DNA of 64,000 bases from Rhodothermales bacterium (GTDB taxonomy: Bacteria; Bacteroidota; Rhodothermia; Rhodothermales; Bin80). The notes under the pieces were generated by a model that did not search any database, was not told where the DNA came from, and saw only the letters and a list, made by a program, of their open reading frames with translations. The DNA lies in contig CBDHCQ010000004.1 of the NCBI GenBank assembly GCA_965261255.1, forward strand, positions 3,507,710 through 3,571,709. Reading direction: 5' to 3'. The position numbers and the translations under genes are program-made. Below are positions 38,623 to 64,000 of this stretch, in pieces. Position 1 is the stretch's first letter; each line of letters opens with the position of its first letter.

Positions 38623-38639
38623 TGGGACAATGTTTGATC

Positions 38640-38903: not shown

Positions 38904-39390
38904 TTTAAAAATTATTGGACTGATTTACTATGCCTGGGGATCTAACTCGCGACTCTTGCAGAACTTATGAATTTGGGGTGGTATTTGGCCAATGGGAGCT
39001 TACGGGACCCTCTTATGGCTGATTCAACGCGACGTAGGAATAGGTAGAGGCCAAAACTCGATCGTGCTTCCCACGCATCTGTAAAATCTGGTTCTGCCGC
39101 AGACAGGAAAACGAATTGTAATCGGATTCAAATCGTGGATTGAGTAGTAAAGTTAGTGGCAGCCAGGGATTTTACCGACTACATCGGTTGGAGTTGAGGA
39201 TTTTGTATTTCCGCTTCGCAGAAATAGACTGGCCCCGGTATCCAAAGGCAAGCTGCGCTCGTAATCTGCTTAATCCATAAGTCGGTGCAAATGAAGAAGA
39301 TTATGGATGATAATATAGAAATGTAAATGGATAAGTTATTATATAGCAAGTCCAATACTATATTGATTATATAACCATTACCCCGCGGCC

Positions 39391-41460
39391 ATGAGAGTTT
39401 TCCTGATCCTGACACTGACCATAATGACCACATCAGCGGCCTTCGGGCAGTCGCTGCCGTTCTATGACGACTTCAACGACGGGGACTTTGACGGATGGGA
39501 AGTAATAGACGATGTGGAGCCCCAGTTTGGCCCCAGTGACTGGTCTGTTGAATTCGGAGAACTCGTCCAGAAATCAAACATTTGGTCCTATGGACCGGTC
39601 GAGCTTGAAACTAAATACCACCTCGGCACCCACGTGGCCACCGGAGATAAGAACTGGGCTGACTATTCGTTCAATGCAGTCGTCCGCAGCTCCGACAATG
39701 ATGGCGTCGGTCTTATCTTCCGCTACCAGGATGAGCGCAACTATTACCGTATCCTGCTGATGAACGACGCCGCATGGTCGGGCCGCGATTCATCGGGGGT
39801 GCCAGTCAACACGCCGCTGCAGCGCCTGCAGAAGTTCATTGATGGGGAACCGTTCATTCTGGCCGAGAATAAAGTCTCGCAAGCCTATCCGTCAGACTAT
39901 TTCGCGCTGACCGCGGATGTGCGTGGCGATACGCTGCGGGCCTATCTCAACGGTGACCTAATTCTTTCAGCCCTTGATGATACGTACGACTCCGGGCGGA
40001 TTGGGCTGCTGTCCTATGCCAATACCGGCGCCTATTACGATAGTGTCGCTGTAACTCAGACACCGTTAATCTATAGCGAACCCAAAGAACGACAATTCAT
40101 GTACAGAGTCCGTGAGTTCCGCGCCCCGTACATCCAGAACCCGACGCAGACCTCAGTGGAAGTTGCCTGGCGCACCGTGGACCCCTCTGTAGGCCGTGTG
40201 CGGTACGGCGTGGAGAAGGGCAATCTAGACTTTGAGGCCGTTGAATCTGAGCAGGTGCAAAAGCACCATGTCCGGCTGGATGGCCTTCAGGTGAGCACGC
40301 GATACTTTTACGAGGTATACAGCGGATCAGACCAGTCATCCGGTGAAGAGAACTTCAGAACGGCACCCCGGCACGATCAGAAGAAGTTTTCCTTTCTGGT
40401 CCTAGGAGACAGCGGTGTTGATACCCCCACACAGTGGCGTGTAGGCGAGCAGATGCGCGCGAGCATGAATGAACGCGAAGTGGACTTCGTGGTCCATGTG
40501 GGCGATGTCCATCAGGGCGCCGGTGACTATTACGATGATATCTACTTCAAACCCTATCGGGAAATCATCAAGAACATCAACATCTTCACATCACTGGGTA
40601 ATCACGATGTGATCACCGACAATGGAGGCGTGTATCTAGATGATTTCTACCTGCCGCACAACAACCCGGACAGTACCGAGCGCTACTACTCATTCCGATG
40701 GGCCAACGCATACTTCATTGCTCTTGACACGAACGGGGATTTCTCGCCGGGATCGGCTCAGCACGATTTCCTGCTTGAAGCTCTGACCGACAGCCTGCGC
40801 CGGTCCGCAACTTGGACTTTCGTCTATGCGCACCATCCGCCCTATACTGAATTCTGGACCAACTACTATGGCGACGAGCGAGTCCAGAACCACCTCGTTC
40901 CCATTTACGAAGAATATGATGTGGACATGGTAATGAATGGGCATACTCACAGTTACGAGCGGGGCGAAAAAGAACATGTCCACTATCTCGTGTCTGGAGG
41001 TGGAGGCGGCGGCCTGGACGATTTTTTCGTGGACTACGACCATATCACGTTCTCGGACGGGGTGCATCACTTTACGCGCATAGATGTGGATGACGATCAG
41101 CTCACGGTCACCGCCACCGATCAGTACGGCCAGCAGGTGGATCAGTTCGTCGTCAACAAGTACGCTTCACTGGATTCCGAAGATGGAGAGCTGCCGGACG
41201 GAATGGGACTGGATCAGAACTTTCCCAATCCTTTTGCGGACTCAACCACAATCCGCTACTCCGTCGCAGACCCGGAGAGAGTCATCCTGGAGGTGTACGA
41301 TACGCTGGGCAGAAGAGTAAGCACGCTTGTCAACCGGAACCATGCACCGGGCCGCTATGCTGTGACCTACAGTCCAATGCATCTGGCAAGCGGCCGATAC
41401 ACATTCAGGCTTACCGCCGGCTCGGCCATCCTCACGCGGCCATTTACCATAGTCCGATGA
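39391..41460 (+). CDS. Secreted metallophosphoesterase: ConA/lectin-like domain + FN3-like + calcineurin-like domain + T9SS type-A CTD
   Basis: Signal peptide; DNDGVGLIFRYQD..NYY and GRIGL beta-sandwich; GDSG, GDVHQ, GNHD, HHPPY and GHTHSYER motifs; tail QNFPNPF...VYDTLGRRV...LASGRY. Confidence 0.85.
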   Translation: MRVFLILTLTIMTTSAAFGQSLPFYDDFNDGDFDGWEVIDDVEPQFGPSDWSVEFGELVQKSNIWSYGPVELETKYHLGTHVATGDKNWADYSFNAVVRSSDNDGVGLIFRYQDERNYYRILLMNDAAWSGRDSSGVPVNTPLQRLQKFIDGEPFILAENKVSQAYPSDYFALTADVRGDTLRAYLNGDLILSALDDTYDSGRIGLLSYANTGAYYDSVAVTQTPLIYSEPKERQFMYRVREFRAPYIQNPTQTSVEVAWRTVDPSVGRVRYGVEKGNLDFEAVESEQVQKHHVRLDGLQVSTRYFYEVYSGSDQSSGEENFRTAPRHDQKKFSFLVLGDSGVDTPTQWRVGEQMRASMNEREVDFVVHVGDVHQGAGDYYDDIYFKPYREIIKNINIFTSLGNHDVITDNGGVYLDDFYLPHNNPDSTERYYSFRWANAYFIALDTNGDFSPGSAQHDFLLEALTDSLRRSATWTFVYAHHPPYTEFWTNYYGDERVQNHLVPIYEEYDVDMVMNGHTHSYERGEKEHVHYLVSGGGGGGLDDFFVDYDHITFSDGVHHFTRIDVDDDQLTVTATDQYGQQVDQFVVNKYASLDSEDGELPDGMGLDQNFPNPFADSTTIRYSVADPERVILEVYDTLGRRVSTLVNRNHAPGRYAVTYSPMHLASGRYTFRLTAGSAILTRPFTIVR

Positions 41461-41590
41461 GGGCGGATATTTACTGGGGGTGCTCGCCGGACGGTACCAA
41501 CTCCATGAGTGCTCAGTACACGCCTGCCAAGCGATCGCAGAATATGATCCGGACAGCCCTTCCCGGCATACTCAGAGTCCGCCGTGTCAC

Positions 41591-41653
41591 CTGCTTTTGC
41601 TATCTTTCGTTCTGTTGCACTTACTTGCGTTTTGCCTAAATTGTATTTAGATT
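41591..41653 (+). promoter_or_regulatory. Putative promoter with 10-bp-phased operator repeats upstream of the TonB receptor
   Basis: TTGCGT (41625-41630)-N17-TAGATT (41648-41653); pentamers CTTTT, CTTTC, GTTGC and CTTGC at 41594, 41604, 41614 and 41624. Confidence 0.55.
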
Positions 41654-41679
41654 TCACACCTTCTCAGTCCACATTGACT

Positions 41680-44658
41680 ATGTTGTCTTACGCGTCGTCA
41701 GGATTGTCGGCGGCCCTATTTGGGCGATCGCCTGGGGATTGTGTCGTGCGGTTTGTGTCCCGGTTGATCCAGACGGGTATGTGGGTAGGTCTATTGATAC
41801 TATTCGGGCAGGACGTTCATGCCCAGAGCACGGGCAAAATCTCCGGGGTTGTTCTGGAGGCTGCCACCGAACTCCCTCTTCCGGGAGCCAGCGTTTATCT
41901 GGAGGAGAACAAGAATCTGGGCGCGCTGACTACAACAGATGGCAGTTATGTGATTCTTGGGATCCCTCCCGGCACCTATACCGTGATGATGTCCTTCGTA
42001 GGCTTCGCTACGGTTCGCCACGAAGAAGTTCAGGTCTTTTCGGGACAAACAACATTTGTTGACGGATCCTTACCGGAGGAAGTGATTGAGGGGGAAGAGA
42101 TCATTGTAACTGCGGAACGCCCGATTGTAATCCGGGATCGGACCAGCACCGTTTCCTACGTAGATCAGGCAGTCATCGAACGTTTGCCTGTGCAGGAGCT
42201 GGGCGAGCTTGTGCAGTTTCAGCCGGGCGTAGTCACCAGTGCCAGCGGAGGACTCCATTTCCGGGGCGGACGCGAAAGGGAAACGGCCTACGTCATTGAT
42301 GGCATCCCGGTGCAAAATGTGTTCTCCCAGTCCGGAGGTAACTCGGTGGACGTGGAAGTTCAATCCGTTCAGGAACTGCAAGTGTTCACCGGTACATTTG
42401 ATGCGGAGTTCGGAGGAGCACAATCCGGAATTGTAAGCGTCACCACGCGGGACCCGGCCAGCAGTCTTGAGGGTCAGCTGCGCTTCCAGGCTGGAGATTT
42501 CTATGCGAATAACGATGAGATTTTTATTGGGGGAACGGGCTTTGATCCTTTGGCCACCAAGGGCGTGACCCTGACGCTGACCGGACCCATCACTGGTGAA
42601 AAGCTGGGGTTCTTTTTTTCCGGACGCTTCGAGGATAGAGCGGGGGCATTGCAGGGGGAGCGCCGATTCACGCCCGAGGATGGATTCATAATTGACACTT
42701 ATCGCCGGTGGTATCGTGATGTATACCAGCCGGACGACACACGTCTGATCACGCTGGACTCCGCGCGTACCCCCACGGGAGGTTCAATTCTGGGGGCGGA
42801 TGGCAACCCGCTGACCTTTTCATCCGGTGACGGAGAGATCGTTCGGATGCAGTGGCGCCAATCACTCACACTCAATCCGAAAATCGTTTTTCGACCTGCC
42901 TCACGCCTCCACATAACTTACAGCGCGTTGTACAACCGATGGCATGGACAGGGCTACAGCAATGGCCGCCGATATGCGCCGGACCATAGGAGCACGCAGT
43001 ATTTCAACTCCCTGACTCACATTTTGTCTGCCAAACAGACCTTCGGCAGCAACAAAGTGTTGGCGCTGAGGGGGTCGTACAAGACGTTTTCAAGCTCTTC
43101 CTATGCCTTTGAGTCAATCTCCGATCCAAGGATCCAGTACATCTCGGCCAGCGACGATGTGACCGGGTACAGCCTGGGGGCTACCGACAATGGAGAAGGG
43201 CGGAGTTCGGAACGCCAGATTATCGCCTCTGGAGACTTTACGTGGCAGATCAATCCCCGCAACGAGTTCAAGTCTGGGTTCCAATACCGGCAAAACGCCT
43301 ACACGATAGAGGACCTGGATCGGAGTTGGGTGCATCGCGACAACAAGGATTCCCTCTACCTAGCGGTCACCTATCCGCCGGCCTTGGACTATCCGAATTT
43401 CTCTGACTATGCGGAGGCAGTTCGCCAGCTGATGCCAGACTTGGTTCCGGAACTCGCCCGATTCGCCGTTGATGACCGGTTTGAGCAGGCCCCCATTGAG
43501 TTTGCGGCCTTTGCCCAGAACAAGCTTGAATTTGATCGGCGACTGGTTATTAAACTGGGGGTTCGATTTGAGTATTTTGATGTCCGGGAAAATCGTCTAA
43601 TTGACCCGCGTACCCCGACCGACCGTATCGGCCGGGCCGACAATTTTGAGCCCACCCCGTCTAAAATGTATCTCAGCCCGCGTGTAGGTATCTCCTATCC
43701 CTTCTCGGAGCGGGGGGCTTTCCGCGTGGCTTACGGTCACTTTATACAGATGCCCGCCTATCGGGAAATGTTCAAGAATCCCGTGTTTGCCACCATCAAT
43801 GTCGGCCGCCTGGAGGGCCGCTCGGTCGGCAACCCGGACTTGGAGCCCGAACGGACCATCAAGTACGAAATGGGTCTGCAACAGCAGTTGTCGTCGTCCA
43901 TCGGGCTGGACATAAACCTGTTCTATAAGAATATTCGCAACCTGTTGGGAACAGAAATTCTGGGCACGCTGGATAACATCCAGTACACGCGTACCGTGAA
44001 CAGAGACTACGGGCTGGTGCGAGGCGGCACGATTTCCCTGATCACCCGACCCGAAGGGATATTGCTGAGCGCCACTTTGGATCTGACATATTCCGATGCA
44101 CGTGGAAGCTCGTCCAGTGCGGGCGATGTGGCCAACATTGTCATCGCCGGCCGGTCCGGCGAAGTGGGTGACCTGTTTCTGGAGCGCCAAATCATCCCTC
44201 TCAACTGGGACCAGACGCTCACTCTTAACGCTACCGCCAATTTCGGGCGACCGGACAACTGGAGTGTCGGCTTCATTTCTCAACTTGCCACCGGACAGCC
44301 TTACACGCCGTCTTTCCTGGACCCAAATCTGGACTTCCCGGACAATGAATTCGACAACGCACTCAAAAAGCCAGTGCTGTTTACATTTGACCTTACGGCC
44401 GAAAAACGTATCTCACTAGGACGGTTTTCCTATGGTCTGCGAATTCAGGTGGAAAATGTATTTAATTACCTCAACGAATTGTTTGTGGACAGCGTATCCG
44501 GCCGCTCAGGTCAAATAATCCGGCTGCCGGAGGTGCAGGCGGATCGGGACATGGTCACCGAGTATGTAGGACTATTTACACGTCAGGAAGCCGACAATAT
44601 CCCAAACTGGTATTCCGCACCCAGAAAGATCCTGTTCAACGTAACCGTTAATTTTTGA
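41680..44658 (+). CDS. TonB-dependent receptor with N-terminal carboxypeptidase-regulatory-like domain
   Basis: AQSTGKISG...PLPGASV...PPGTY; plug GGLHFRGGR..ETAYVIDGIPV; GNPDLEPERT; terminal Phe (NVTVNF); ATG 41680 chosen because it follows the promoter. Confidence 0.88.
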   Translation: MLSYASSGLSAALFGRSPGDCVVRFVSRLIQTGMWVGLLILFGQDVHAQSTGKISGVVLEAATELPLPGASVYLEENKNLGALTTTDGSYVILGIPPGTYTVMMSFVGFATVRHEEVQVFSGQTTFVDGSLPEEVIEGEEIIVTAERPIVIRDRTSTVSYVDQAVIERLPVQELGELVQFQPGVVTSASGGLHFRGGRERETAYVIDGIPVQNVFSQSGGNSVDVEVQSVQELQVFTGTFDAEFGGAQSGIVSVTTRDPASSLEGQLRFQAGDFYANNDEIFIGGTGFDPLATKGVTLTLTGPITGEKLGFFFSGRFEDRAGALQGERRFTPEDGFIIDTYRRWYRDVYQPDDTRLITLDSARTPTGGSILGADGNPLTFSSGDGEIVRMQWRQSLTLNPKIVFRPASRLHITYSALYNRWHGQGYSNGRRYAPDHRSTQYFNSLTHILSAKQTFGSNKVLALRGSYKTFSSSSYAFESISDPRIQYISASDDVTGYSLGATDNGEGRSSERQIIASGDFTWQINPRNEFKSGFQYRQNAYTIEDLDRSWVHRDNKDSLYLAVTYPPALDYPNFSDYAEAVRQLMPDLVPELARFAVDDRFEQAPIEFAAFAQNKLEFDRRLVIKLGVRFEYFDVRENRLIDPRTPTDRIGRADNFEPTPSKMYLSPRVGISYPFSERGAFRVAYGHFIQMPAYREMFKNPVFATINVGRLEGRSVGNPDLEPERTIKYEMGLQQQLSSSIGLDINLFYKNIRNLLGTEILGTLDNIQYTRTVNRDYGLVRGGTISLITRPEGILLSATLDLTYSDARGSSSSAGDVANIVIAGRSGEVGDLFLERQIIPLNWDQTLTLNATANFGRPDNWSVGFISQLATGQPYTPSFLDPNLDFPDNEFDNALKKPVLFTFDLTAEKRISLGRFSYGLRIQVENVFNYLNELFVDSVSGRSGQIIRLPEVQADRDMVTEYVGLFTRQEADNIPNWYSAPRKILFNVTVNF

Positions 44659-44670
44659 TCTGCATTCGTT

Positions 44671-47600
44671 ATGGAACGTCCGCTACTGTCGGTTATGATT
44701 GTACTCTTGGTCACGCTCTTCGGAGCGAGGCCAGTGGTTGGTCAGTCAAAGCCGGAGTCAGCATCGGAAAGGGATGCACTCCGCCAGCAGCAGGCCGCCG
44801 ACCGGGCGATTGAAAGGTGGGCAGCCCAGAACAAGACCGGGGCCACAGGTCCGCTGTCATTCCGTAATTTCGTCCGCGGAGGTGTGGCATCCGGAAACCT
44901 GATTCAGGTTCCGTATGTGACGAATATCAACATTTCCGCCGGGTACTGGGGCAGCACGGTATCTCCTAGATTTATCACCTGGCCCAAAGGATCCGGCGTG
45001 GAGTACGGCCACACTATGAGCTTTATCGTGGCCGGTCAGGTCACCAATGATGCGGGTAGCGAACTCCAGATTCTCTCAGAAAGCTACAATCGCAGTGGGG
45101 GAGATACGCACCCCTCCGGCAGTCATAAGTTCTTTTTCAGTGCACTGCCCGGCTACTACAATATGCAGGGCAATTTGGGAACGCGCAATCGGCTCAATGA
45201 CAATCCTGACGATCGGCAACTGCTGGAGCAGGCCGGCTATTATTTTGTCGGAGGAATGGATGAGGACCGGAATGGAAACGGCCAGTTGGATGCGGGCGAG
45301 GACCTCAACAATAACGGGGAACTGGACTATAATCTAATCAACGATCTGGAGTACACCTCCCAGTCAAACGTCCTTCAGACTTGGCCGGCCTTCTGGCCTC
45401 CCAAGTCCTATGTTGGCGATCTGAGAAGCGACTGTCAGTTTGAACAAGGGACATCCTGCAGTCCCGAGCCCGGGGTGCGGGCCGGCAAATGGAATGGGGC
45501 GTACGGCGCGTTTGTGCGTGGCGATCAGGAATCGTATTACCTGGCTGATGATCGCGACAATGATGAATTCAATTATGCGCCGTTTCTGGACCCGGCCACC
45601 GGTGAGCCGGATCGGCGCTCCTGGGCAAACGGAGGGCGACGCGGACTTGGTATAGAGGTTGAGGTCCGGCAGTACCAGTGGGCCAGTGTGCTGGCGGAAG
45701 ACATCTTTATCGCTACTTTTGATGTGGAAAACATCAGCCGCAAAGAAATTCCCACGGCCATTATCGCGATGATAGTTGACTATGATATTGCCGGTTCAAC
45801 GGGAAGCAATCAGGCGTTATTCGATACCCAAGACGACATCACCTACCAGTGGCTGAAGCGGGACCTAGTCATCAATGGATTCAAGGTAGGCTACGCGGGC
45901 GTCGGCTTTCTGGAGAGCCCCGGAATCAGCGATGACGGTATAGACAATGATGCCGATGGCCTCGTGGACGAGAGCCGGGAAAACGGCATTGACGATGATG
46001 GAGACTGGCGTACTTGGCAGGATCCGAACGGCAACGGCGTGTTTGATAACGAAGATGCCAACCACAATTTTGTGCTTGATCCTGGCGAAGATCTTGACAA
46101 TGACGGACGCCTCACGATTGAGCCACTTAATGACGATACCGGCTCGGATGGCCTCGGCCCAGAGTTTGAAGGGTATACGGGGCCGGATCCGGATGGGACC
46201 GAAGCCAACGGTCGCCCTGATCCTGGTGAACCCAACTTTGAATTCACGGATAATGACGAAATCGACCAGATCGGACTGACCAATATGGTCATCCGTACGC
46301 CGGCGGATTTTGACCGGGACCTTGACGACGACCCGCTCTTCTGGACGGAATACATTCAGCCTGTACCCGAGTCCGAATTTATCGTCCCCACTGAGACGGC
46401 TGATGTGATCTACGTCTACAGCTCCGGTTATGCCCAAATCGAGCGCGGAAGCAAGCAGCGTTTCTCGCTGGCCTATTTCTGCGGCAATGACTTTCAGGAC
46501 ATGCTTCGCAATAAGCGAACCATGCAGAACATTTATGATGCCGATTACAGTTTCGCCAAACCTCCCCGGACACCCTTTGTGACGGCCGTACCTGGGGATG
46601 GAAGGGTGACCCTCGTTTGGGATCAGAGTGCGGAGTCTTCACGTGACCCGGTGTACGGCCTGGACTTTGAAATGTACAAGGTTTATCGTAGCACCGAACC
46701 CGAATTCAACGACATCAAGACGATCACTGACGCATTCGGCAATCCGCTCCTTTGGGAGCCGTTGCTCACGGAGGCAGGGGATAAGGTGCAGTTTGACATT
46801 GAGAACGGTCTCTATGGGGCGCATCCGGTCCCGATCAGCGGATTTGGAGTCAGCTACGACATGGGGACCGACAGTGGTCTGGAATACAGTGTGGTGGACT
46901 CCACCGTAGACAACGGACGAACTTACTATTATTGCGTAGTATCCGTGGACCATGGCTACCACAATTCGTTCTTTGGCGAAGGGATTTCAGTGTACGAAAA
47001 CCTGGCGGAAATTACCCCCACTGAGAGCTCCAAGATCATTGAAGTGGACGCGTTTGACCGCCCGGTAAATGTTGACCGTAATTGTGCGATCGTTGTACCC
47101 CAGAAACCGGCCCTCGGTTACCAGCCGCCGCAGCTGGTAAATGGCATTGAGCGGCAGTCAGGGGATGCGTCGGGGCGCTTGAGCGTTGAGTTCCTGATCC
47201 CGGACGAGGCCAACAGTCAGGGGTACGAATATGAATTTACCTTTACTGACGATAACTCGTTCGCCGAGGTGGACTCGGTGCTTCTCAAAAACGGACTGAC
47301 CACCGGCTTTACACTGCGCAATGTGACGACCAATCGGGTGATGGCAACCAGCGCTCCGGGCAGCCGCGGCGATGAGATATTCAGCGGCGAGGTTCTGCGG
47401 GCGAGAACGTACGACGGGATGAAGTTCACCATTACCAATCCGCTAGTTCCGGAGGTTTCAACAGCAGCCTGGCTGGACAATTCTTCTTCTGTGCGGGGGA
47501 CGCCCACGCCATCAACCGTGATTTCCGTCGGCGCTCCCGGAGACAACATTGCCGTTCCAGTTGACTACGAACTCCGTGTATCCACCCTAGGTGCCGACAC

Positions 47601-48552: not shown

Positions 48553-48554
48553 GT

Positions 48555-49646: not shown

Positions 49647-49742
49647 CCTCGAGCCATGAGAGACATCTTTCGCGTGGCGGCAGGCCGCTGCATCTTTTGG
49701 GAGAATTCCCAATCATCTTCACACTAGTTAATTTCCGATACC

Positions 49743-53846: not shown

Positions 53847-53875
53847 CCCTCGGTACATCTGATCTTGCAGGTCGT

Positions 53876-53913
53876 ACAAGGGGAGTCGGTCGCTCCGGCT
53901 CCCCTTGTCTTTT
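53876..53913 (+). terminator. Strong hairpin with short U tract (leaky terminator or mRNA stabiliser)
   Basis: ACAAGGGGAGTCGG-TCGCT-CCGGCTCCCCTTGT followed by CTTTT, 30 bp after the stop of the repeat protein. Confidence 0.7.
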
Positions 53914-53915
53914 CC

Positions 53916-56199: not shown

Positions 56200-56268
56200 A
56201 CGAACAGGATCATTAATTGTCGCAAAGTAATGCATTCCAGCCCAATTTGCACAAAAGTTACATATGGG

Positions 56269-56347
56269 ATTTCACATTGTTTCGAAACCTTGACCAATCG
56301 CAATGAAATGTGTATTATTGGAAAGACATTCCGCAAGCCAATGCAAT
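56269..56347 (+). promoter_or_regulatory. sigma70-type promoter of phnW with overlapping operator-like pentamers
   Basis: TTGACC (56290-56295)-N17-TATTAT (56313-56318) with extended TG; ATTTC/GTTTC at 56269/56279; inverted copies GAAAC 56284, GAAAG 56321, GCAAG/GCAAT 56333/56343. Confidence 0.7.
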
Positions 56348-56352
56348 CGTGA

Positions 56353-57486: not shown

Positions 57487-57620
57487 ATCCAAGCCTGCAT
57501 GCATCTGACCTTAAATCCCCTCACAGCCTATCTGCCTCCCGATGGCACTGTCCTGCGGATGTGGAACATCACAGACTTGAGGCCAACCCCCCAAGTCTGT
57601 TGGGCATCATACCAGGAAAC

Positions 57621-60077
57621 ATGAACCCTAAACTTTTCTGCCTTGTCTGTGCGCTCGCGTCTGTTGTAGCTGGCAGCACACATGCCCGTCAGCAAAGCGC
57701 TTTGCCGGCGATCCATATTGTTGTTGTGGGTGTTGATGGCCTCAGCCCGGACGGGGTACGCCAGGCGTCCACGCCCCATCTTGATGCTTTGATGGAGCAG
57801 GGGGCCTATAGCTTTAAGGCGCGCGCCGTTCTACCGACTTCCAGCAGCCCGAACTGGGCGTCTATGATTAATGGGGCCGGACCTGAGCAGCACGGGATAA
57901 TCTCCAACGCATGGCAGCCGGACGACTATAGCATTGAGCCGGTGGTCAGTGGGGTGGGGCCAGTGTTTATGAGCATTTTTGATCTGATCGCACTGGCGGA
58001 TCCTGACGCGGTCTCGGCATCAATCTATGATTGGGGCGGTTTTGGCCGCCTGTATAACCGCGACGCGGTAACTATTGACATTGATGCGGATGGACCGCAG
58101 GCTGCTGCCGACAGCGCTGTAGCAGTATTCCACGCTCGCAGACCAGTGTTCACGTTTGTACATCTTGACCATGTAGATGCAGCTGGCCACCGCGATGGCC
58201 ACGGGTCGCCAGGCTACTATGCGTCGGTTGAGGAAGCGGATCGTCTCATAGGTATCATCCTTGAAGGCCTCAATTCTGCTGAAATGCGGGAGTCAGCAAC
58301 GGTCATTATTTCTTCGGATCATGGCGGAGTCGGAACAAGACACGGTGGGGAGAGCATGGCGGAGGTGGAGATACCCTGGATTATCCAGGGCCCGCTCGTG
58401 CCGGCTGGCATCGGCATTGAGAGTCCGATTGACACTTACGATACCGCCGCAACCGTTGCGCATCTATTGGGACTCACGCAGCCCGACGGCTGGATTGGCC
58501 GCCCGGTCTATGAAGCCTTTGCGCTCGAGAGTCCCCCTTCGCCGCCTAGTCCCGCCGGAATTGAGCATGTCGTTGTTGTGGGTGTGGACGGCCTCAGTCC
58601 TGATGGCATTCAAAAGGCCCACACACCGGTTCTGAATGCGCTGATCCCCAACAGTGCGTACAGTTTCCACGCACGAGCGGTGCTGACCACCTCCAGCAGT
58701 CAAAACTGGTCTTCCATGATTATGGGTGCGGGCCCCGAACAACATGGTATTACTTCCAACGAGTGGGAGAGGGATAATTTTTCGATCACCCCTACGGTTG
58801 CGGGGCCTGAGGGTCTCTTTCCGTCCATATTCTCAGAGGTCCGTGCGGCAGAGCCTGAAGCCTACATTGCATCCATCTATGACTGGGGCGGTTTCGGGCG
58901 CCTTTTTCCGTCAAGCACGGTGGATGCCGATATTGATGGTGACGGGCCGCAAGACACCGTAGACAGGGTCTTGGCGCAATTCGTGGAGCACAAACCGCGC
59001 CTGACGTTTGTCCACCTTGATCACGTGGATCACGCGCTGCATTCCTATGGGCACGGGACGGACAGGTATTATGCATCTGTTACGGAAGCTGACAGGTTAA
59101 TCGGTGCAATCATGGAGGGACTGAAGGTTGCAGGTATGTTTGAGCGGACGCTGGTGCTGATATCGTCTGATCACGGCGGATTGGGAAAGGGTCACGGTGG
59201 ATCCTCAATGCAGGAGCTTGAGATCCCCTGGATTGCCCACGGTGTTGGCGTCGCGAAGGGCACAAGGCTGACCGTGCCCATCAACACTTTTGATACAGCT
59301 GCAACGGTACTGTATGCCTTAGGGATTGCGCCTCCGCTTGCCTGGATTGCGCGACCGGTTACGGACGCGTTTGGATCACCTGCAGCGGATGTGTATGTGC
59401 CGGCGCCACGCATCGCACCGGTTGCAAGCCGCAGCCTTCAGCCCGGTCCTATCACAATTTCTATGCAAGTTGATGATCCGCTTGCTGCCATCCACTACAC
59501 CCTGGATGGAAGCGAACCATCGGCGGCATCCCGATTGTACGAAGGGAGTTTTGAGCTAATGTCCAGTACGACTGTTCGCGCAACATCGATGCGGGAAGGT
59601 CACATGAGTATGCATTCGCAGTCTTCCTATCGCTTGTTGGAAGCGGGTGCCACCCGGAACGTGTTTTTTGCCTATTACGAAGGGGAGTGGGACGTACTGC
59701 CCGATTTTGACCAGCTGCAGCCCGTTCAGACCGGAACAGTTTATGAAATTGACCTTATTGGCGTAGATGACCGGCGGGAAGACTACTTCGCTATTCGATT
59801 CGAAAGTGCAATCCGTATTGACGAAGCAGGGCCCCACACCTTCTACTCCCGCTCAGACGATGGTACGAAGCTGTACATCAACGGCGAACTGGTGGTTGAC
59901 AACGATGGCAATCACGGCGCCATTGAGCGTAGCGGCGAGGTTGAGCTTGAGCCTGGTTTAGCTACGATTGTCGTGGAATACTTTGAATCCAGCGGCGGTG
60001 AGCACTTGGAGATATCCATGCAGCGCCCCGGTTCCGCGCGTGAGCACCTCACCGTTGAGCACTTCGTCAGCTACTAG
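57621..60077 (+). CDS. Exported enzyme with two tandem alkaline-phosphatase-superfamily (NPP-like) domains, an Fn3-associated/CHB_HEX_C domain and a PA14 domain
   Basis: Signal peptide from ATG 57621; two copies of VVVGVDGLSPDG / [PT]TSSS[PQ]NW / DHVD / SDHGG; IHYTLDGSEP; SDDGTKLYING.LVVDNDG.H...YFE..GGE. Confidence 0.85.
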   Translation: MNPKLFCLVCALASVVAGSTHARQQSALPAIHIVVVGVDGLSPDGVRQASTPHLDALMEQGAYSFKARAVLPTSSSPNWASMINGAGPEQHGIISNAWQPDDYSIEPVVSGVGPVFMSIFDLIALADPDAVSASIYDWGGFGRLYNRDAVTIDIDADGPQAAADSAVAVFHARRPVFTFVHLDHVDAAGHRDGHGSPGYYASVEEADRLIGIILEGLNSAEMRESATVIISSDHGGVGTRHGGESMAEVEIPWIIQGPLVPAGIGIESPIDTYDTAATVAHLLGLTQPDGWIGRPVYEAFALESPPSPPSPAGIEHVVVVGVDGLSPDGIQKAHTPVLNALIPNSAYSFHARAVLTTSSSQNWSSMIMGAGPEQHGITSNEWERDNFSITPTVAGPEGLFPSIFSEVRAAEPEAYIASIYDWGGFGRLFPSSTVDADIDGDGPQDTVDRVLAQFVEHKPRLTFVHLDHVDHALHSYGHGTDRYYASVTEADRLIGAIMEGLKVAGMFERTLVLISSDHGGLGKGHGGSSMQELEIPWIAHGVGVAKGTRLTVPINTFDTAATVLYALGIAPPLAWIARPVTDAFGSPAADVYVPAPRIAPVASRSLQPGPITISMQVDDPLAAIHYTLDGSEPSAASRLYEGSFELMSSTTVRATSMREGHMSMHSQSSYRLLEAGATRNVFFAYYEGEWDVLPDFDQLQPVQTGTVYEIDLIGVDDRREDYFAIRFESAIRIDEAGPHTFYSRSDDGTKLYINGELVVDNDGNHGAIERSGEVELEPGLATIVVEYFESSGGEHLEISMQRPGSAREHLTVEHFVSY

Positions 60078-60091
60078 CCTCAAATTTGGTA

Positions 60092-61474
60092 ATGGACCAC
60101 GCTATGGGTGCAAGGGCAGAGGTCTCTTCAGCGGATGGCATGCTGACAGAAGGAGACCTCAATGTGTCGAGGCGTAGATCCCGTTGGATGGCTGAGCACA
60201 TAGATGATTCGACGCGCGCGCTGATCGAACAGGATGCTCAGTTCTTTCTACACCAGTCTTTGTCAACACCCTGCCTCAATGTGCTGCGCGCCTGCGAGGG
60301 TGCCAGTATGGAGGACAGGGAGTGCCGGAGTATACTTGATTTTCACGGTAATGCTGTTCACCAGGTTGGTTATCGCCATCCCAGCGTGATCAAAGCCGTG
60401 ATCCGGCAGCTGGAAACGCTGCCGTTTTGTCCGCGCCGCTACACGAATGAGCCGGCTATAGCGCTGGCCGCCAAGTTGGCGGAATTGGCGCCGGGGACCT
60501 TGGGTAAAGTGCTGTTTGCCCCTGGTGGTGCGCTGGCCATGGGCATGGCAATGAAGCTCGCCCGTATGGCCACGGGACGCTTCAAGACCATTTCGATGTG
60601 GGATTCCTTTCATGGTGCCTCTCTAGACACTATTTCCATTGGTGGAGAGGCCTTGTTTCGGCAGGACATCGGACCGCTGCTGCCGGGTACCCATCATGTT
60701 CCTCCCCCCAATGCAGTTGGCTGCCCGTTTGATTGCGGAAATGCGTGCTCACTCAAGTGCGCGGATTATCTGGAGTATGTCCTGGCCAAAGAGGGCGACA
60801 TCGGTGCAGTAATTGCCGAAACCGTGCGCAGTACACCCTTCTTCCCACCCCGCGAATACTGGCAGAAAGTCCGGGCTGCTTGCGACCGACACGGTGCACT
60901 CCTGATCCTGGATGAAATACCCCATGCGTTGGGCCGAACCGGCAAATTCTTTACCTGCGAGCACTATGACATTGAGCCCGACATGATCGTAATCGGCAAA
61001 GGGTTGGGCGGGGGCATCTTTCCACTCGCTGCGCTGATTGCCCGTGAGCAGCTGGATATTGCCGGTGACCGTGCATTGGGTCACTATACACATGAAAAAA
61101 GCCCGGTTGGGTGCGCAGCCGCCTTGGCCACCATCAGCGTCATTGAGGAAGAGGGTCTGCTTGAACATGTCCGTGATCTGGGTACCTGGACACTCGAACA
61201 GCTGAGGGCAATGCAGGCACGACAGCCCGCTATCAGGCGGGTCGAAGGGATGGGGCTGATGATCGGTGTCACTGTTGGAGATGGTGCGGATTCCGTGGCG
61301 TTTGCAGAGGATGTCATGTATCGGGCCCTGGCCTTGGGACTGAATTTCAAACTGACCATGGGAAATACAATTCAGCTTATGCCCGCGCTCACAATCACGC
61401 AGGAGCAAATGCAGCAGGCCCTCAACATACTTGAAATGTCCATTGCGGCAGCTGCAAATCAGGTCATTGAATGA
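60092..61474 (+). CDS. pbfA: (R)-1-hydroxy-2-aminoethylphosphonate ammonia-lyase (class III PLP enzyme)
   Basis: EGDLN; FLHQSLSTPCL; DFHGN.VHQ.G; SFHGASL; DEIP; GKGLGGG; GHYTHEKSP; located in a phnW/phnA/phnY cluster. Confidence 0.85.
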   Translation: MDHAMGARAEVSSADGMLTEGDLNVSRRRSRWMAEHIDDSTRALIEQDAQFFLHQSLSTPCLNVLRACEGASMEDRECRSILDFHGNAVHQVGYRHPSVIKAVIRQLETLPFCPRRYTNEPAIALAAKLAELAPGTLGKVLFAPGGALAMGMAMKLARMATGRFKTISMWDSFHGASLDTISIGGEALFRQDIGPLLPGTHHVPPPNAVGCPFDCGNACSLKCADYLEYVLAKEGDIGAVIAETVRSTPFFPPREYWQKVRAACDRHGALLILDEIPHALGRTGKFFTCEHYDIEPDMIVIGKGLGGGIFPLAALIAREQLDIAGDRALGHYTHEKSPVGCAAALATISVIEEEGLLEHVRDLGTWTLEQLRAMQARQPAIRRVEGMGLMIGVTVGDGADSVAFAEDVMYRALALGLNFKLTMGNTIQLMPALTITQEQMQQALNILEMSIAAAANQVIE

Positions 61475-61609
61475 GGACTCAGCCACGATTTCGCCGCCCG
61501 TCGGGGAGCTCACCGATGCGAAGGCCTCGCTGCGCAATCCCAGACCGTTCTTCCATTCAGGCGGTTAAGGCGGGCCTCAAAAGATGTCCCGGAAAGACAC
61601 ATTTACCTC

Positions 61610-62881
61610 ATGCCGACCAAGCCTAGCACTGACCACATGATCAGCCGCAAGTCTTTCACGGCCAACGGCAAAACGTACAACCCACCCGGTTGTCGGGTGG
61701 CAGTGATCTGCCTGGACGGCTCTTCGGACGAGTACATCAATGCGGCCTTGGCGCACAAGCAGATGCCCAACCTGTCTGCAATGCTGGAGCAAGGGGGCTT
61801 TCGAGGTGTTGCTCGAGCAGCGCTGCCCAGCTTTACCAATGTGAATAATGCCTCAATTGTTACCGGGGTACCGCCAAGTGTCCACGGCATCAGCGGCAAC
61901 TTTTTTCTGGACCCGGATTCCGGCCAAGAAGTGATGATGAATTCCGGCTCCTTCCTGCGCGTGGAGACGATTCTTGCTGAAGCCGCAAGGGCAGGGCGGC
62001 GGGTGGGCGTTGTTACAGCAAAAGAAAAGCTAAGAGATATCCTGTCTCATGGGCTCGCCGGCATCGCATTCTCGGCTGAGAAGGCTGATGAAGCAAAGAA
62101 AATAACCCACGGTATTGATCATGTGGAGGACGTGGTCGGCGCACCCGCGCCTCCCATTTACAGCGCGGAAGCCAGCCTGTTTGTTCTTGCCGCAGGAGTT
62201 GCAATGATGCAACACGGTCTGGCTGATCTCGTGTATCTTTCGCTAACGGACTACATGCAGCACAAGCATGCCCCTGGCAGCGACCGGGCAATAGAATTCT
62301 ACAGCCAGATTGACATTGAAATCGGCCGATTGCTCGCCTGCCGTGCCCTCGTCGCCGCTACCGCCGATCACGGCATGAATGCTAAACAGCATATGGATCG
62401 CACGCCCAATGTGATATACCTGGAGACGCTGCTGACTGAGACCTTCGGAGACGGGTGTGATGTCATTCTGCCCATCACAGATCCCTATGTCGTACATCAC
62501 GGATCTCTGGGATCTTTCGCCGTTGTCCACCTAGCCGAACACATGAACGCAGAGGCGGTTGGGCAATGGATCCTGGGGCTGGATGGCATTACGGAGGTGT
62601 ACCATCGTCGGCAGGCGGCGGAGAAACTCGAACTTCCTGCCGACCGCATTGGCGATCTAGTCGTGCTCTCGGCCAGGGATGTGGTTATCGGGAGAACGCC
62701 TGACCAGCATGATCTGACCGCTGTGGCCAAAGGCCTGCGCTCACATGGAGGGCGGTACGAGGAAATGGTGCCCCTGCTGCTTTCGGAGCCGCTCAAGCCC
62801 CGATATGCTCAATACGCGGACACGGATCCGCGCAACTTTGACGTGTTTGACTTCGCACTCAACGGCACAACCAGAACCTGA
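61610..62881 (+). CDS. phnA: Phosphonoacetate hydrolase
   Basis: VICLDG; PSFTNVNN; GISGNFF; TAKEKL; TDYMQHK; ADHGM; PITDPYVVHH; LRSHGG. Confidence 0.93.
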   Translation: MPTKPSTDHMISRKSFTANGKTYNPPGCRVAVICLDGSSDEYINAALAHKQMPNLSAMLEQGGFRGVARAALPSFTNVNNASIVTGVPPSVHGISGNFFLDPDSGQEVMMNSGSFLRVETILAEAARAGRRVGVVTAKEKLRDILSHGLAGIAFSAEKADEAKKITHGIDHVEDVVGAPAPPIYSAEASLFVLAAGVAMMQHGLADLVYLSLTDYMQHKHAPGSDRAIEFYSQIDIEIGRLLACRALVAATADHGMNAKQHMDRTPNVIYLETLLTETFGDGCDVILPITDPYVVHHGSLGSFAVVHLAEHMNAEAVGQWILGLDGITEVYHRRQAAEKLELPADRIGDLVVLSARDVVIGRTPDQHDLTAVAKGLRSHGGRYEEMVPLLLSEPLKPRYAQYADTDPRNFDVFDFALNGTTRT

Positions 62882-62900
62882 AATTCACCAGTAATCTGCC

Positions 62901-64000
62901 ATGAATACCCAAATGTCAGGCCTTAGCACTCTAGACCTGTCCTGCTACATCGCCGGCCGCGCAGTCCAGACCGGCAACTGGTTGACGGTGGTCAATCCTT
63001 ACACGGGTGAGTCGGCGGGGCGCGTCGCCTGTGTGAAACAAAACCATGTGGAGCAGGCCATCGCGGCTGCGTTGCAGTCCGGCCCGACCCTGTCGCGCTA
63101 TGCGCGCTCTGAAATCCTCATGAAAGCCCGCACTCTTCTTGAGGAACGCGCCGATTCCTTTGCACAACTGATCACTTTGGAGTCGGGGCTGTGTATGAGA
63201 GAGTCCCGGTACGAAGTGGGACGGTCCAGTGATGTACTGCAATTCGCCGCCATGGAGGCGCTTAAGGATGATGGCCAGGTGTTTTCCTGTGACATCTCTC
63301 CCCAGGGAAAGGCTCGCAAAATCTTCACTCTCCGTGAGCCGCATCAACTGGTAGCGGCCATCACTCCCTTCAACCATCCCTTGAATCAGGTCATACATAA
63401 ACTCGCGCCAGCGATTGCCTGCGGTGCGCCTGCGATCCTCAAGCCTTCCGAAAAGACCCCAATGACGGCCATACGATGTGTGGAGCTGCTGTACGAGGCA
63501 GGTCTGCCGGGATGGATGTTAAGCGTGATTATGGGAGATGTGGAAGAAGTCGCAACCCCCCTCGTGGTTGACCCAAGGGTTGAGGTGCTTTGCTTTACTG
63601 GTAGTGTTGCCATTGGCAAGGAGATTGCCTCCCAGGCGGGATACAAGCGGCTCATTCTGGAGCTTGGAGGCAATTCGCCGCTGATTGTGATGGAGGATGC
63701 TAATCTGGATCTGGCTGTAAAACTCGCCACGGAAGGATGTTATCGTAATTCAGGACAGCGCTGCACCGCCGTAAAGCGGTTGCTGATCCATGAGCCTATC
63801 GTGAGCAGGTTTACCGAGCAGTTCGTGGAAGCGTCAAAGGCCTACGTCTGCGGCGACCCCACAGCGGATGAGACGCGGGTGGGAACCGTAATTGATGAGT
63901 CGGCGGCGATTCGCCTCGAAAATGTCGTCGCCCGGGCCACTAGGGACGGGGCAAGAATTCTGCTCGGAGGCCGGCGAAAGGGTGCTCTGTACGTGCCCAC
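62901..64000 (+). CDS. phnY: Phosphonoacetaldehyde dehydrogenase (partial; runs off window)
   Basis: My translation from ATG 62901: ...DDGQVFSCDISPQGKARKIFTLREP...ITPFNHPLNQ...KPSEKTP...FTGS...LELGGN...SGQRCTA; absent from the ORF track because there is no stop in the window. Confidence 0.9.
   Translation, partial: MNTQMSGLSTLDLSCYIAGRAVQTGNWLTVVNPYTGESAGRVACVKQNHVEQAIAAALQSGPTLSRYARSEILMKARTLLEERADSFAQLITLESGLCMRESRYEVGRSSDVLQFAAMEALKDDGQVFSCDISPQGKARKIFTLREPHQLVAAITPFNHPLNQVIHKLAPAIACGAPAILKPSEKTPMTAIRCVELLYEAGLPGWMLSVIMGDVEEVATPLVVDPRVEVLCFTGSVAIGKEIASQAGYKRLILELGGNSPLIVMEDANLDLAVKLATEGCYRNSGQRCTAVKRLLIHEPIVSRFTEQFVEASKAYVCGDPTADETRVGTVIDESAAIRLENVVARATRDGARILLGGRRKGALYVP

Follow-up and report, generated by a model that had tools for sequence, protein, structure and literature searches.

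The locus lies in a window of 64,000 nucleotides (contig CBDHCQ010000004.1 of assembly GCA_965261255.1, positions 3,507,710 to 3,571,709) from a marine Rhodothermales bacterium, in which twelve genes, here numbered g1 to g12, join a putative outer-membrane capture system to enzymes of aminophosphonate breakdown. The left edge of the block is at 39008, followed by an AT-rich region upstream of g1 (39008–39390). The first gene, g1 (39391–41460, plus strand), encodes a predicted T9SS-secreted phosphoesterase with a signal peptide, an Fn3-like PAP_N domain, a calcineurin-like metallophosphoesterase domain and a type A C-terminal domain (CTD; TIGR04183 26.1 against a cut-off of 23). Its nearest solved structures are plant purple acid phosphatases (E 2e-12), and the motifs GDSG, GNHD, VYAH and GHTH are present, although GDxxY reads GDVHQ. 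The N-terminal domain is only weakly lectin-like, as it matches the CBM66 of levanase at E 0.002. Downstream, g2 (41584–44658, plus strand) is a TonB-dependent receptor (TBDR) with an N-terminal CarboxypepD_reg domain, a plug and a barrel, whose real start is probably downstream of the GTG at 41584. This receptor is not SusC-class, since the SusC/RagA model TIGR04056 scores 46.3 against a cut-off of 368.25.

The next two genes are proposed to act as a pair. g3 (44671–48552, plus strand) encodes an exported protein of 1293 residues of an uncharacterised family, with no Pfam, NCBIfam or PDB sequence hit and only unnamed clusters as Atlas neighbours. It holds Asp-rich DxDxDG runs, a string of beta-sandwich domains, a helical bundle and a divergent T9SS-CTD-like C-terminal domain, and is the proposed surface partner of the TBDR. 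The model of its C-terminal half has a pLDDT of 82.2 and a pTM of 0.72, with a local fold match to PorZ (5m11; probability 1.00, 130 columns, 24% identity). g4 (48555–49646, plus strand) is an outer-membrane barrel of the PorV/PorQ family (NF033709 185.8 against 90) that falls below the equivalog cut-offs of both PorV (74.3 against 250) and PorQ (67.1 against 220), and is the proposed anchor or shuttle for the CTD of g3. The model of the g3–g4 complex scores 0.88, with the best of three controls at 0.37, a mark reached by 58 of 80 solved complexes and 2 of 110 mismatched pairs, although these counts hold only roughly because our own alignments were used. The runs agree in at least 82% of contacts, and the partner pLDDT is at least 71. 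However, T9SS PorV–cargo complexes have been solved, and the pass may therefore reflect likeness rather than binding.

The capture half is completed by g5 (49743–53846, plus strand), a T9SS cargo of 1367 residues made of about seven repeats that each begin with EPN, plus a type A CTD (TIGR04183 47.9 against 23; PF18962 45.1 against 27), which is its only family hit. The EPN triplets are invariant in four orthologues, and the protein is a candidate surface binding protein. g6 (53865–55439, plus strand) is a SurA-like PPIase, with Rotamase_2 and SurA_N hits just below their cut-offs, and is probably a lipoprotein that starts at M18 (about 53916; LIAAC lipobox). A strong hairpin of 14 pairs, 9 of them G–C, followed by a T-run, lies between g5 and this likely true start (53876–53908, plus strand). 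Signal peptides are visible on g1, g3, g4, g5 and g9.

On the opposite strand, g7 (55429–56235, minus strand) encodes a DeoR-family regulator (HTH_DeoR plus a DeoRC sensor), which converges on g6 and diverges from phnW, whereas in four loci of other genomes (L023, L024, L026 and L038) its orthologues lie divergent from the TBDR gene instead. The intergenic region between g7 and phnW (56236–56352) holds the palindrome TGTTTCGAAAC (56278–56289) and a sigma-70-like TTGACC-17-TATTAT (56290–56318), identified by reading the sequence, by conservation across six colinear loci and by a promoter scan.

The catabolic half begins with g8 (56353–57486, plus strand), which is PhnW, the 2-aminoethylphosphonate (AEP):pyruvate transaminase (TIGR02326 462.6 against 400.8; NF010006 486 against 296). 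It is followed by g9 (57561–60077, plus strand), an exported tandem NPP-type phosphodiesterase with CHB_HEX_C and PA14 domains, which is the proposed phosphonate-ester hydrolase. Its likely start is M21 (57621), followed by a Sec signal peptide, and PF01663 scores 198.8 with three stretches. Both catalytic domains carry complete NPP motifs. Its nearest solved structures are ENPP3, ENPP1 and Xanthomonas NPP, and in the ENPP3 alignment PTSSSPN lies over PTKTFPN, DAAGH over DSAGH, and SDHG over ADHG. PbfA is encoded by g10 (60086–61474, plus strand; NF049939 658.8 against 525), and the phosphonoacetate hydrolase PhnA by g11 (61610–62881, plus strand; TIGR02335 489.8 against 407.55). Finally, g12 (62901–64000, plus strand) is the phosphonoacetaldehyde dehydrogenase PhnY, which is cut by the window end and runs on to window-equivalent 64343; the full-length protein passes its cut-off (TIGR03250 637.3 against 635.65). 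Two more genes follow outside the window, a PbfD-family FAD oxidase at 64363–65490 and an OPA-family MFS transporter at 65533–66870; in the searches of this extended region TIGR03364 scored 376.9 against 285.1, and the MFS is GlpT/PgtP-like. The gene positions and families given in an earlier note on this sequence are thus confirmed, and its observation is real, with the lectin part of g1 only weakly supported.

Linkage between the capture module and the phn genes

The whole block, from 39008 to about 67329, is a single 28.3-kb indel against a congener that lacks exactly g1 to the MFS gene. This island-less genome (G019) aligns to window positions 38289–39007 (91.8% over 719 nt) and resumes at window-equivalent 67330 (83.7% over 680 nt). 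The earlier note had suspected an island boundary near 39.3 kb, and an exact edge does lie at 39008, with GC rising from about 0.50 to 0.55–0.57 after about 40 kb. An inner-membrane transporter, which the note had proposed to look for beyond 64000, is also present.

Among 41 relatives, full-length g3 orthologues occur in 6 genomes, PhnW in 5, PbfA in 5 and the PbfD family in 4. The union of the latter three is the same 6 genomes, and none of the other 35 has any of them, although the relatives are not independent and this pattern rests on about four lineages. The core formed by the TBDR, the 1293-residue protein, the PorV-like barrel, the PPC-repeat protein and the PPIase sits beside phn genes or exported phosphoesterases in 26 of 31 loci from other genomes of Rhodothermales and Balneolales, indicating that the clustering is not chance. 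Of these 31 loci, 13 have phn genes within 10 kb, 13 show only g1-like or g9-like esterases or the MFS, and 5 have neither, 4 of which are cut by contig ends. The genes are colinear with DeoR, colinear without it, or divergent. Longer views add pbfA, a PhnX-like HAD and a g9-like gene in Balneola (G043), HLUCCA01 (G042) and Roseithermus (G037). Of ten module-bearing genomes without phn genes in view, eight have PhnW, PbfA or PbfD above cut-off elsewhere in the genome. The earlier note would have been contradicted if homologues of the TBDR module were not linked to phn genes elsewhere, and this check went in its favour.

Similar arrangements are found in other classes of Bacteroidota. One genome (G423) carries PAP, TBDR (36% identity), g3-like (41%), PorV-like (41%), PPIase, PAP-like, a CTD protein, PhnW, a HAD, a PhoA-like protein, a GDPD-like protein, PbfA and g9-like, all on one strand. 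Another (G330) carries SusC, SusD, an NPP-like protein, PhnA, PhnY, PhnW, an FAD oxidase and DUF5690 on one strand, so that a SusCD pair takes the position of the module.

These data bear on the possibility that the two halves are unrelated modules that merely travel together in one island. In support of it, the capture genes and the phn genes are separate transcription units in this genome, with the DeoR gene on the opposite strand between them, and no shared operator was found. The palindrome beside phnW has no second exact copy in the window; with up to two mismatches the window has 10 matches against 16.6 expected, none of them near g1 or g2, and no TTTCG or TTTCA half-site lies within 300 nt upstream of g1 or g2. 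However, the adjacency survives rearrangement and recurs across two orders and in the 36–41% identical version in another class, which, together with the SusCD pair of G330 and the co-occurrence in 6 of 6 against 0 of 35 genomes, makes this reading very unlikely.

Proposed acquisition of esterified aminophosphonates

The best reading, held with moderate confidence, is that the block is one accessory island that encodes a PUL-like acquisition system for aminophosphonates that arrive as esters, either head groups of phosphonolipids, fragments of phosphonoglycans, or both, which suggests how bacteria may harvest phosphonates bound up in lipids and glycans. The gene families and their linkage are demonstrated by the analysis, whereas the localisations, the enzyme activities, the substrates, the order of the steps and any co-induction of the two halves are inferred. 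In this view, three T9SS cargoes (the PAP-like phosphoesterase g1, the beta-sandwich protein g3 and the EPN-repeat protein g5) would be displayed at the cell surface, with g3 held by the dedicated PorV-family barrel g4 and the lipoprotein PPIase g6 helping to fold them. These proteins would bind and trim the substrate, and the receptor g2 would import the fragment. In the periplasm, g9 would cut the P–O ester, which for a phosphonate ester releases free AEP, 1-hydroxy-AEP or N-methyl-AEP, and the GlpT-like (AepP-like) MFS transporter would carry the monomer into the cell. PhnW, PbfA and the PbfD-family oxidase would all converge on phosphonoacetaldehyde, which PhnY would oxidise to phosphonoacetate, from which PhnA would release acetate and phosphate. 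The DeoR-family regulator is proposed to control at least the phn operon, and its sensor domain suggests induction by a phosphorylated or phosphonylated small molecule rather than by phosphate starvation. No PEP mutase was found in the 97%-complete genome, so the phosphonate would be exogenous.

Several neighbours hint at glycan or lipid substrates. The PA14 and CHB_HEX_C pair of g9 is also fused to a PAP-type enzyme next to a PbfD-like gene in Balneola, a GH123 gene lies between g6 and g9 in another module-bearing genome (G038), and a PI-PLC gene follows g1 in Balneola. The interpretation offered in the earlier note, of a system that binds, imports and de-esterifies phosphonoglycans or phosphonolipids, is therefore partly supported: the linkage holds, but neither the nature of the substrate, nor the cleavage of phosphonate esters by the two phosphoesterases, nor the co-induction of both halves has been shown, and no RNA run was listed among the sequencing runs searched.

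An alternative is a general organophosphate scavenging system, functionally like PusCD, in which the module and esterases would take up ordinary phosphodiesters such as phospholipid head groups, inositol phosphates, nucleic acids or teichoic acids, and the phn genes would be only one of several downstream branches that happen to be attached in Rhodothermales. NPP and PAP enzymes are generalists, a g1-like PAP is the most constant neighbour of the module, and 13 of the 31 loci show only esterases or the MFS within 10 kb. Some loci carry inositol-type genes instead (PI-PLC, Gfo/Idh-type dehydrogenases and an inositol-monophosphatase-family protein), which fits a broader organophosphate role, and PusCD precedents for phosphatidylinositol exist (bioRxiv 10.64898/2026.09.03.749221). 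Moreover, eight module-bearing genomes lack PhnW; in one of the module-bearing genomes (G041) neither PhnW nor PbfA was found, and in another (G049) none of PhnW, PbfD, PhnX or PhnA. On the other hand, the module occurs among the 41 relatives only in genomes with PhnW, PbfA or PbfD, eight of the ten genomes without phn genes in view have one of these elsewhere, the longer views in Balneola and HLUCCA01 uncovered pbfA, a HAD and a g9-like gene next to the module, and g9 sits inside the phn operon, between phnW and pbfA. This alternative remains possible but is considered unlikely.

It is more doubtful still that the module is a high-affinity uptake system for free aminophosphonates, in which the TBDR would import monomeric AEP or hydroxy-AEP at low concentration and the exported esterases would be unrelated phosphate scavengers. 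TBDRs for small scarce nutrients exist, and the module and phn genes are linked. However, this reading does not explain why exported NPP-like or PAP-like esterases accompany phn genes in every inspected locus on a long contig (the window, G037, G038, G042, G043, G423, G438 and G330) and on the short G099 contig. Neither does it explain the lectin-like, PA14 and CHB_HEX_C domains, the GH123, PI-PLC or GDPD-like genes, or the need for three large surface proteins for a 125-Da ligand.

Comparison with described systems

The earlier note knew of no described system with this composition, which is overstated, as the concept is not wholly new. Phosphate utilisation systems (PUS) of Flavobacterium, with their PusCD TBDT–lipoprotein complexes (PMC8115612; bioRxiv 10.64898/2026.09.03.749221), are also PUL-like loci for organic phosphorus, and PusCD loci were reported beside phosphonate-degrading enzymes (PMC8115612). 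The present system, from Rhodothermales and Balneolales, differs in that no SusD-like lipoprotein is present and the TBDR is not SusC-class, the proposed surface partners are T9SS cargoes with a dedicated PorV-family barrel and a PPIase, the regulator is DeoR-type and not shown to be Pho-controlled, and the catabolic set is the full PhnW/PbfA/PbfD/PhnY/PhnA route.

The cytoplasmic enzymes are the same as those of the hydrolytic AEP clusters phnWAY/phnWX, which are described with the ancillary enzymes PbfA and PbfB/C/D and the transporters AepXVW, AepP and AepSTU (PMC8154272, PMC10590968, PMC12366243, PMC8316502), and they pass equivalog cut-offs. A GlpT-like MFS lies beside phnWAY, as reported for AepP. 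However, the described clusters take up the free monomer, while here an exported NPP-type diesterase lies inside the operon and a TBDR/T9SS module is attached. In addition, the pbfA-phnY-phnA combination has been stated to be found only in Proteobacteria (PMC12366243), but here it occurs in Rhodothermales.

The predicted g3–g4 pair resembles the T9SS attachment pairs PorV–PorU and PorQ–PorZ, where a PorV/PorQ-family barrel is paired with a large surface protein through a CTD-like beta-sandwich. Nevertheless, g4 lies below the PorV and PorQ equivalog cut-offs and is encoded five times in this genome, each time beside a TBDR and a g3 paralogue, and is therefore a cassette part rather than core secretion machinery. 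The outer-membrane core is thus one of five paralogous T9SS-linked TBDR cassettes, each proposed to be specialised by its cargo enzymes. The T9SS cargoes of the cassettes include an alpha-amylase, an amidase and LamG-domain proteins; the other four cassettes carry an amylase or an amidase, and PPIase genes flank three of them.

Similarly, g9 shares the NPP fold and the metal/nucleophile motifs with the eukaryotic enzymes ENPP6 and ENPP7 (5tcd, E 1.5e-6 for ENPP7), PLC-type lysophospholipid and sphingomyelin phosphodiesterases; cleavage on the lipid side of the phosphorus would release AEP from a phosphonolipid. The similarity is only at family level, since g9 has Ser where the ENPP3 nucleophile Thr aligns, two tandem catalytic domains, and PA14 and CHB_HEX_C domains, and its activity is inferred from sequence alone.

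Regarding habitat, DNA at least 85% alike covers all 30 bins of window positions 44001–64000 in one "marine", one "coral" and two "sponge" metagenome runs from four studies.

Gene content and boundaries of the island

The window lies at positions 3507710-3571709 of contig C4 of the source genome (G000), and twelve ORFs fill 39391-64000 in the arrangement listed in the earlier note, whose observation is confirmed. Pfam and NCBIfam searches of the six upstream proteins identify g1 as a PAP_N and Metallophos protein with a T9SS CTD, g2 as a TonB-dependent receptor (TBDR) with CarboxypepD_reg, plug and barrel domains, g4 as a member of the PorV/PorQ family, g5 as a protein of 1367 residues with a CTD only, and g6 as a SurA-like PPIase, while g3, with 1293 residues, matches no family. 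Of the downstream genes, g7 encodes a DeoR-family protein, g8 PhnW, g9 a protein with two NPP-type domains followed by CHB_HEX_C and PA14 domains, g10 PbfA, g11 PhnA and g12 PhnY.

The three enzymes of the PhnW-PhnY-PhnA hydrolytic AEP pathway score above their NCBIfam equivalog cut-offs, with 462.6 against 400.8 for PhnW, 489.8 against 407.55 for PhnA and, by a narrow margin, 637.3 against 635.65 for the full-length PhnY, which is completed by the sequence beyond the window. PbfA, the (R)-1-hydroxy-AEP ammonia-lyase, scores 658.8 against 525 with the equivalog_domain model NF049939. Directly after phnY lies an FAD oxidase of family TIGR03364 (376.9 against 285.1), the family of PbfD1, which oxidises N-methyl-AEP, AEP and dimethyl-AEP to phosphonoacetaldehyde (PMC10590968), so that its assignment holds at the level of the family rather than of substrate preference. 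It is followed by a GlpT/PgtP-like MFS transporter, after which unrelated genes follow on the other strand. A GlpT-like MFS beside phnWAY is what was described as AepP, the OPA-family 2-AEP permease (PMC8316502), although the resemblance of this protein to AepP rests only on the family level, where it falls below all cut-offs, and on its co-localisation with phnWAY.

Both halves of the block are gained or lost as one piece. G019, a congener whose flanks are 92% and 84% identical, aligns to window 38289-39007 and then directly to window-equivalent 67330-68005, and the 28.3 kb in between hold exactly g1 to the MFS gene. Across the left edge, the GC content rises from about 0.50 to 0.55-0.57. Just to the right of the island, a gene for a 383-residue beta-propeller (DUF5128-like; window-equivalent 68312-69463, L001:5422-6573) is also missing in G019, which represents a separate small indel.

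Linkage of the module to phn genes in other genomes

The earlier note had named the absence of linkage between TBDR-module homologues and phn genes in other genomes as a ground for rejecting its reading, and the comparison speaks in favor of linkage. Although g3 belongs to a large paralogous family, full-length orthologues (at least 67% identity) occur in only 6 of 41 related genomes (G000, G010, G016, G037, G038, and G040). PbfA is found in 5 of the 41, PhnW in 5, and the PbfD family in 4. The union of these three is the same six genomes, and none of the other 35 has any of them, although the six represent about four lineages, so this is not a statistical proof.

A search with an alignment of g5 orthologues returned 33 loci, of which 31 carry the g2-g6 core. 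They come from Rhodothermales, Roseithermus sacchariphilus, Balneolaceae/Balneola, and "Bacteroidetes bacterium HLUCCA01". Within flanks of 10 kb, 13 of the 31 show phn genes, 13 show only g1-like or g9-like esterases or the MFS, and 5 show none of these, 4 of which are cut by contig ends. The gene orders differ, being colinear as in the window in 5 loci and colinear without DeoR in 4, whereas phnW is divergent upstream in 3 and DeoR is divergent from the TBDR gene in 4. Ten module-bearing genomes had no phn gene in view; eight of them have PhnW, PbfA or PbfD above cut-off elsewhere, while in the other two, G041 and G049, none was found among the families searched. PhnX (TIGR01422) scored above its cut-off in 0 of 5 genomes. 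A search for PhnA in five genomes without PhnW gave no hits, but the control search also found nothing anywhere, so the absence of PhnA is not shown by it.

Longer views changed the cases in which only esterases had been visible. In Balneola (G043), g1 is followed by a PI-PLC and an unknown protein, and on the other strand lie a g9-like gene, DUF5690, PbfA (61%) and a PhnX-like HAD. In HLUCCA01 (G042), PhnW, a PbfD-like gene, a HAD, PbfA (55%) and a g9-like gene lie next to the module. In R. sacchariphilus MEBiC09517 (G037), where the locus lies at about 677.9-716 kb of CP030158, the TBDR module is followed by DeoR, HAD, PhnW, PAP-like, PbfA and MFS genes. An apparent PhnX-PhnW fusion in the latter genome, read from a stop-to-stop frame, is ruled out by a separate 237-residue HAD gene that ends just before phnW. 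The HAD proteins match the PhnX-like model TIGR03351 below its cut-off. In this same cultured carrier, PbfA (L015:9805-11174) reads as two overlapping ORFs of 290 and 296 residues and the family match covers only positions 181-441, which is either a frameshift or an assembly error. Balneola also holds a second cluster (L056:7-4389, on contig C3 of G043), where a PAP_N-Metallophos-CHB_HEX_C-PA14 esterase is followed by a class-III aminotransferase (33% to PbfA) and a PbfD-family oxidase; this esterase has the same accessory domains as g9 on a different catalytic fold.

Beyond the class, PhnW is rare in the phylum, with 7 of 401 genomes scoring above the cut-off. Of these seven contexts, four carry the module (G000, G037, G438, and G423). 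In G423, which belongs to a different class, a 36-41% identical PAP-TBDR-g3-PorV-PPIase array runs straight into PhnW, a HAD, a PhoA-like protein, a GDPD-like protein, PbfA and a g9-like gene on one strand. In G330, also from another class of Bacteroidota, a canonical SusC/SusD pair is followed on the same strand by an NPP-like protein, PhnA, PhnY, PhnW, an FAD oxidase and DUF5690 (L079:578-6892 and L078:13209-19941), forming a SusCD-type phosphonate locus. The remaining two, G099 and G244, sit on short contigs, although G099 still shows g9-like and PAP-LamG genes around phnW and pbfA. In this phylum, then, aminophosphonate genes usually sit beside an outer-membrane importer and exported phosphoesterases. 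The DUF5690 protein (550 bits in Pfam, without an NCBIfam name) sits directly beside PhnW or PbfA in four genomes that lack the AepP-like MFS at that spot (L055:9309-10637 in G043, L076:18609-19919 in G244, L078:13209-14495 in G330, and L081:12720-14126 in G423), and it is a candidate for a new inner-membrane aminophosphonate transporter family.

The outer-membrane cassette, the esterases and the regulator

The TBDR encoded by g2 is not SusC-class, since it scores 46.3 against a cut-off of 368.25 with TIGR04056 and only its N-terminal 165 residues match, and no SusD-family hit is found on any of the six upstream proteins. By contrast, SusD-like proteins were detected by Pfam in another of the genomes inspected (G046) and by BLAST in G330. 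The GTG start of the TBDR gene (window 41584-41780) gives about 85 residues before the first domain with no clear signal peptide at the N-terminus, and an internal Met at about residue 66 looks more plausible, which would widen the g1-g2 spacer to about 320 nt. The protein g4 meets only the broad family NF033709 (185.8 against 90), and remains below the cut-offs for PorV (74.3 against 250), PorQ (67.1 against 220) and PorV2 (75.8 against 325). Both g1 and g5 carry the C-terminal sorting domain of type A T9SS cargo, with 26.1 and 47.9, respectively, against a cut-off of 23 for TIGR04183. Right after g5, a 14-pair hairpin with a T-run (window 53876-53908) lies inside the mechanically called start of g6, which more likely starts at M18 (about 53916), with a lipobox.

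For g3, searches of Pfam, NCBIfam and PDB sequences gave no hit, including no sorting-domain HMM, and its Atlas neighbors are unnamed clusters. It has a signal peptide, Asp-rich DxDxDG runs and a C-terminus that reads like a divergent CTD. The model of its N-terminal half (pLDDT 58.9) is too poor to search with, whereas that of the C-terminal half (pLDDT 82.2) is a chain of beta-sandwiches, a helical bundle and a terminal sandwich that matches PorZ locally. The global fold matches of this half (S-layer, complement, fibronectin, GH2) have a TM of about 0.1 and show only a string of beta-sandwich domains, so that only the local PorZ match is used. A complex model of the terminal domain with g4 scored 0.88, with the best of three controls at 0.37. 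The mark that this model passed was reached by 58 of 80 solved complexes and 2 of 110 mismatched pairs, although these counts hold only roughly for the alignments built here. The runs agree in at least 82% of contacts, and the partner pLDDT is at least 71. However, PorV-cargo complexes have been solved, and the result shows likeness to that interaction, not that these two proteins bind.

Five TBDR/g3-like/PorV-like cassettes are present in G000. The four others (L085-L088) lie on contig C4 at 838770-854353, 1078748-1095484, 1192817-1203803, and 1249085-1260108, each with T9SS cargoes, and three of them have a PPIase beside them. Their cargoes include an alpha-amylase-CTD protein, an Amidase_2-CTD protein, and LTD/LamG and FG-GAP proteins. 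The cassette is therefore generic and specialised by its cargo, which is the logic of a PUL, and it looks like a SusD-less PUL architecture of Rhodothermia.

Regarding the esterases, g9 matches PF01663 with a score of 198.8 against 23 in three stretches. An alignment with ENPP3 covers the nucleophile and the DxxGH and DHG motifs in the first catalytic domain, with a Ser where ENPP3 has the nucleophile Thr, and the second domain repeats the same motifs by eye. The protein probably starts at M21 with a Sec signal and has no CTD or lipobox, from which a periplasmic location is inferred. Cutting the P-O bond of an AEP ester releases free AEP, which is the chemistry of a phosphodiesterase or phosphonate monoester hydrolase, an activity that for g9 is predicted from sequence alone. 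Of the five metal-ligand motifs of purple acid phosphatases (DxG, GDxxY, GNH(D/E), VxxH, and GHxH), g1 has four, but GDxxY reads GDVHQ and lacks the chromophoric Tyr, so g1 is PAP-like and not a bona fide purple enzyme. Several features point to substrates borne on glycans or lipids, namely the PA14 and CHB_HEX_C domains of g9, the same pair on the PAP-type enzyme next to the PbfD-like gene in Balneola, the weakly CBM66-like N-domain of g1, a GH123 between g6 and g9 in G038, and the PI-PLC and GDPD-like genes in other versions of the locus.

The capture genes end convergent with the DeoR gene, which is divergent from phnW. The DeoR-phnW spacer of 117 nt holds a conserved TGTTTCGAAAC palindrome next to a promoter-like site, TTGACC-17-TATTAT. 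TTTCG repeats also fill the DeoR-TBDR spacers of three loci in other genomes (L024, L026, and L038), which fits one regulon in those genomes. In this genome, however, no TTTCG or TTTCA half-site occurs within 300 nt upstream of g1 or g2, and a search of the window for the palindrome with up to 2 mismatches gives 10 matches against 16.6 expected, none of them near g1 or g2. As no RNA data set was listed for window 52000-61500 either, co-induction of both halves remains only a possibility on present evidence.

Proposed role and relation to described systems

The interpretation of the earlier note, which saw a PUL-like system that binds, imports and de-esterifies phosphonoglycans or phosphonolipids, is partly supported. 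The gene content has been confirmed and the linkage of both halves is well supported by the comparisons, whereas the substrate and the mechanism are reasoned from sequence, models and gene neighborhood alone. No PEP mutase was found in the 97%-complete genome, so the phosphonate would come from outside. Contigs at least 85% alike cover all 30 bins of window 44001-64000 in one "marine", one "coral" and two "sponge" metagenome runs from four studies, and cnidarian lipids rich in ceramide-AEP are reported (PMC3587569 and PMC6488065).

Most biogenic AEP is esterified in lipids and glycans, yet characterised catabolic clusters start from the free monomer, and a 2023 review searched for the release step (PMC10574752) names no enzyme or outer-membrane route for it. 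This locus offers candidates for this step in the exported NPP-type diesterase encoded inside the phn operon, the secreted PAP-like esterase, and a dedicated TBDR with surface proteins. A cultured carrier, R. sacchariphilus, is available. It also exposes a T9SS-linked TBDR cassette that seems to be the Rhodothermia counterpart of SusCD loci, specialised in the same genome by an amylase, an amidase or phosphoesterase cargo. A further reading, which is tentative, regards the TBDR/g3/PorV-like triad as a previously undescribed class of TonB-dependent transporter complex, where the surface substrate-binding partner is a T9SS-secreted protein tethered by its own PorV-family barrel instead of a SusD lipoprotein, and which Rhodothermia would use as their general PUL architecture. 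In this view, the present copy would import phosphonate esters, and g9, with the PAP-like g1, would be the missing natural phosphonate-monoester hydrolase that frees AEP, hydroxy-AEP and N-methyl-AEP from phosphonolipids and phosphonoglycans of marine invertebrates and protists.

The nearest described concept is the phosphate utilisation system of Flavobacterium, where PusCD has been shown in a preprint to be needed for growth on phosphatidylinositol. The idea of a PUL-like phosphorus locus is therefore known. What differs here is the SusD-less, T9SS/PorV-linked cassette, the full PhnW/PbfA/PbfD/PhnY/PhnA set with an exported NPP diesterase inside the operon, the taxon, and the strength of the comparative signal. 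Literature searches for a TBDR/T9SS/phn system or for phnW with SusC/SusD found no paper describing this composition, although subscription journals and supplementary files, such as the gene-neighborhood tables of PMC8316502, PMC10590968 and PMC8115612, lay beyond their reach and may hold related maps. A 2025 paper (PMC12366243) states that the combination pbfA-phnY-phnA is found only in Proteobacteria. The three genes occur together here (window 60086-64000) and in at least 8 further Rhodothermales loci (L021, L028, L030, L037, L039, L043, L047, and L048), which extends the combination beyond Proteobacteria.
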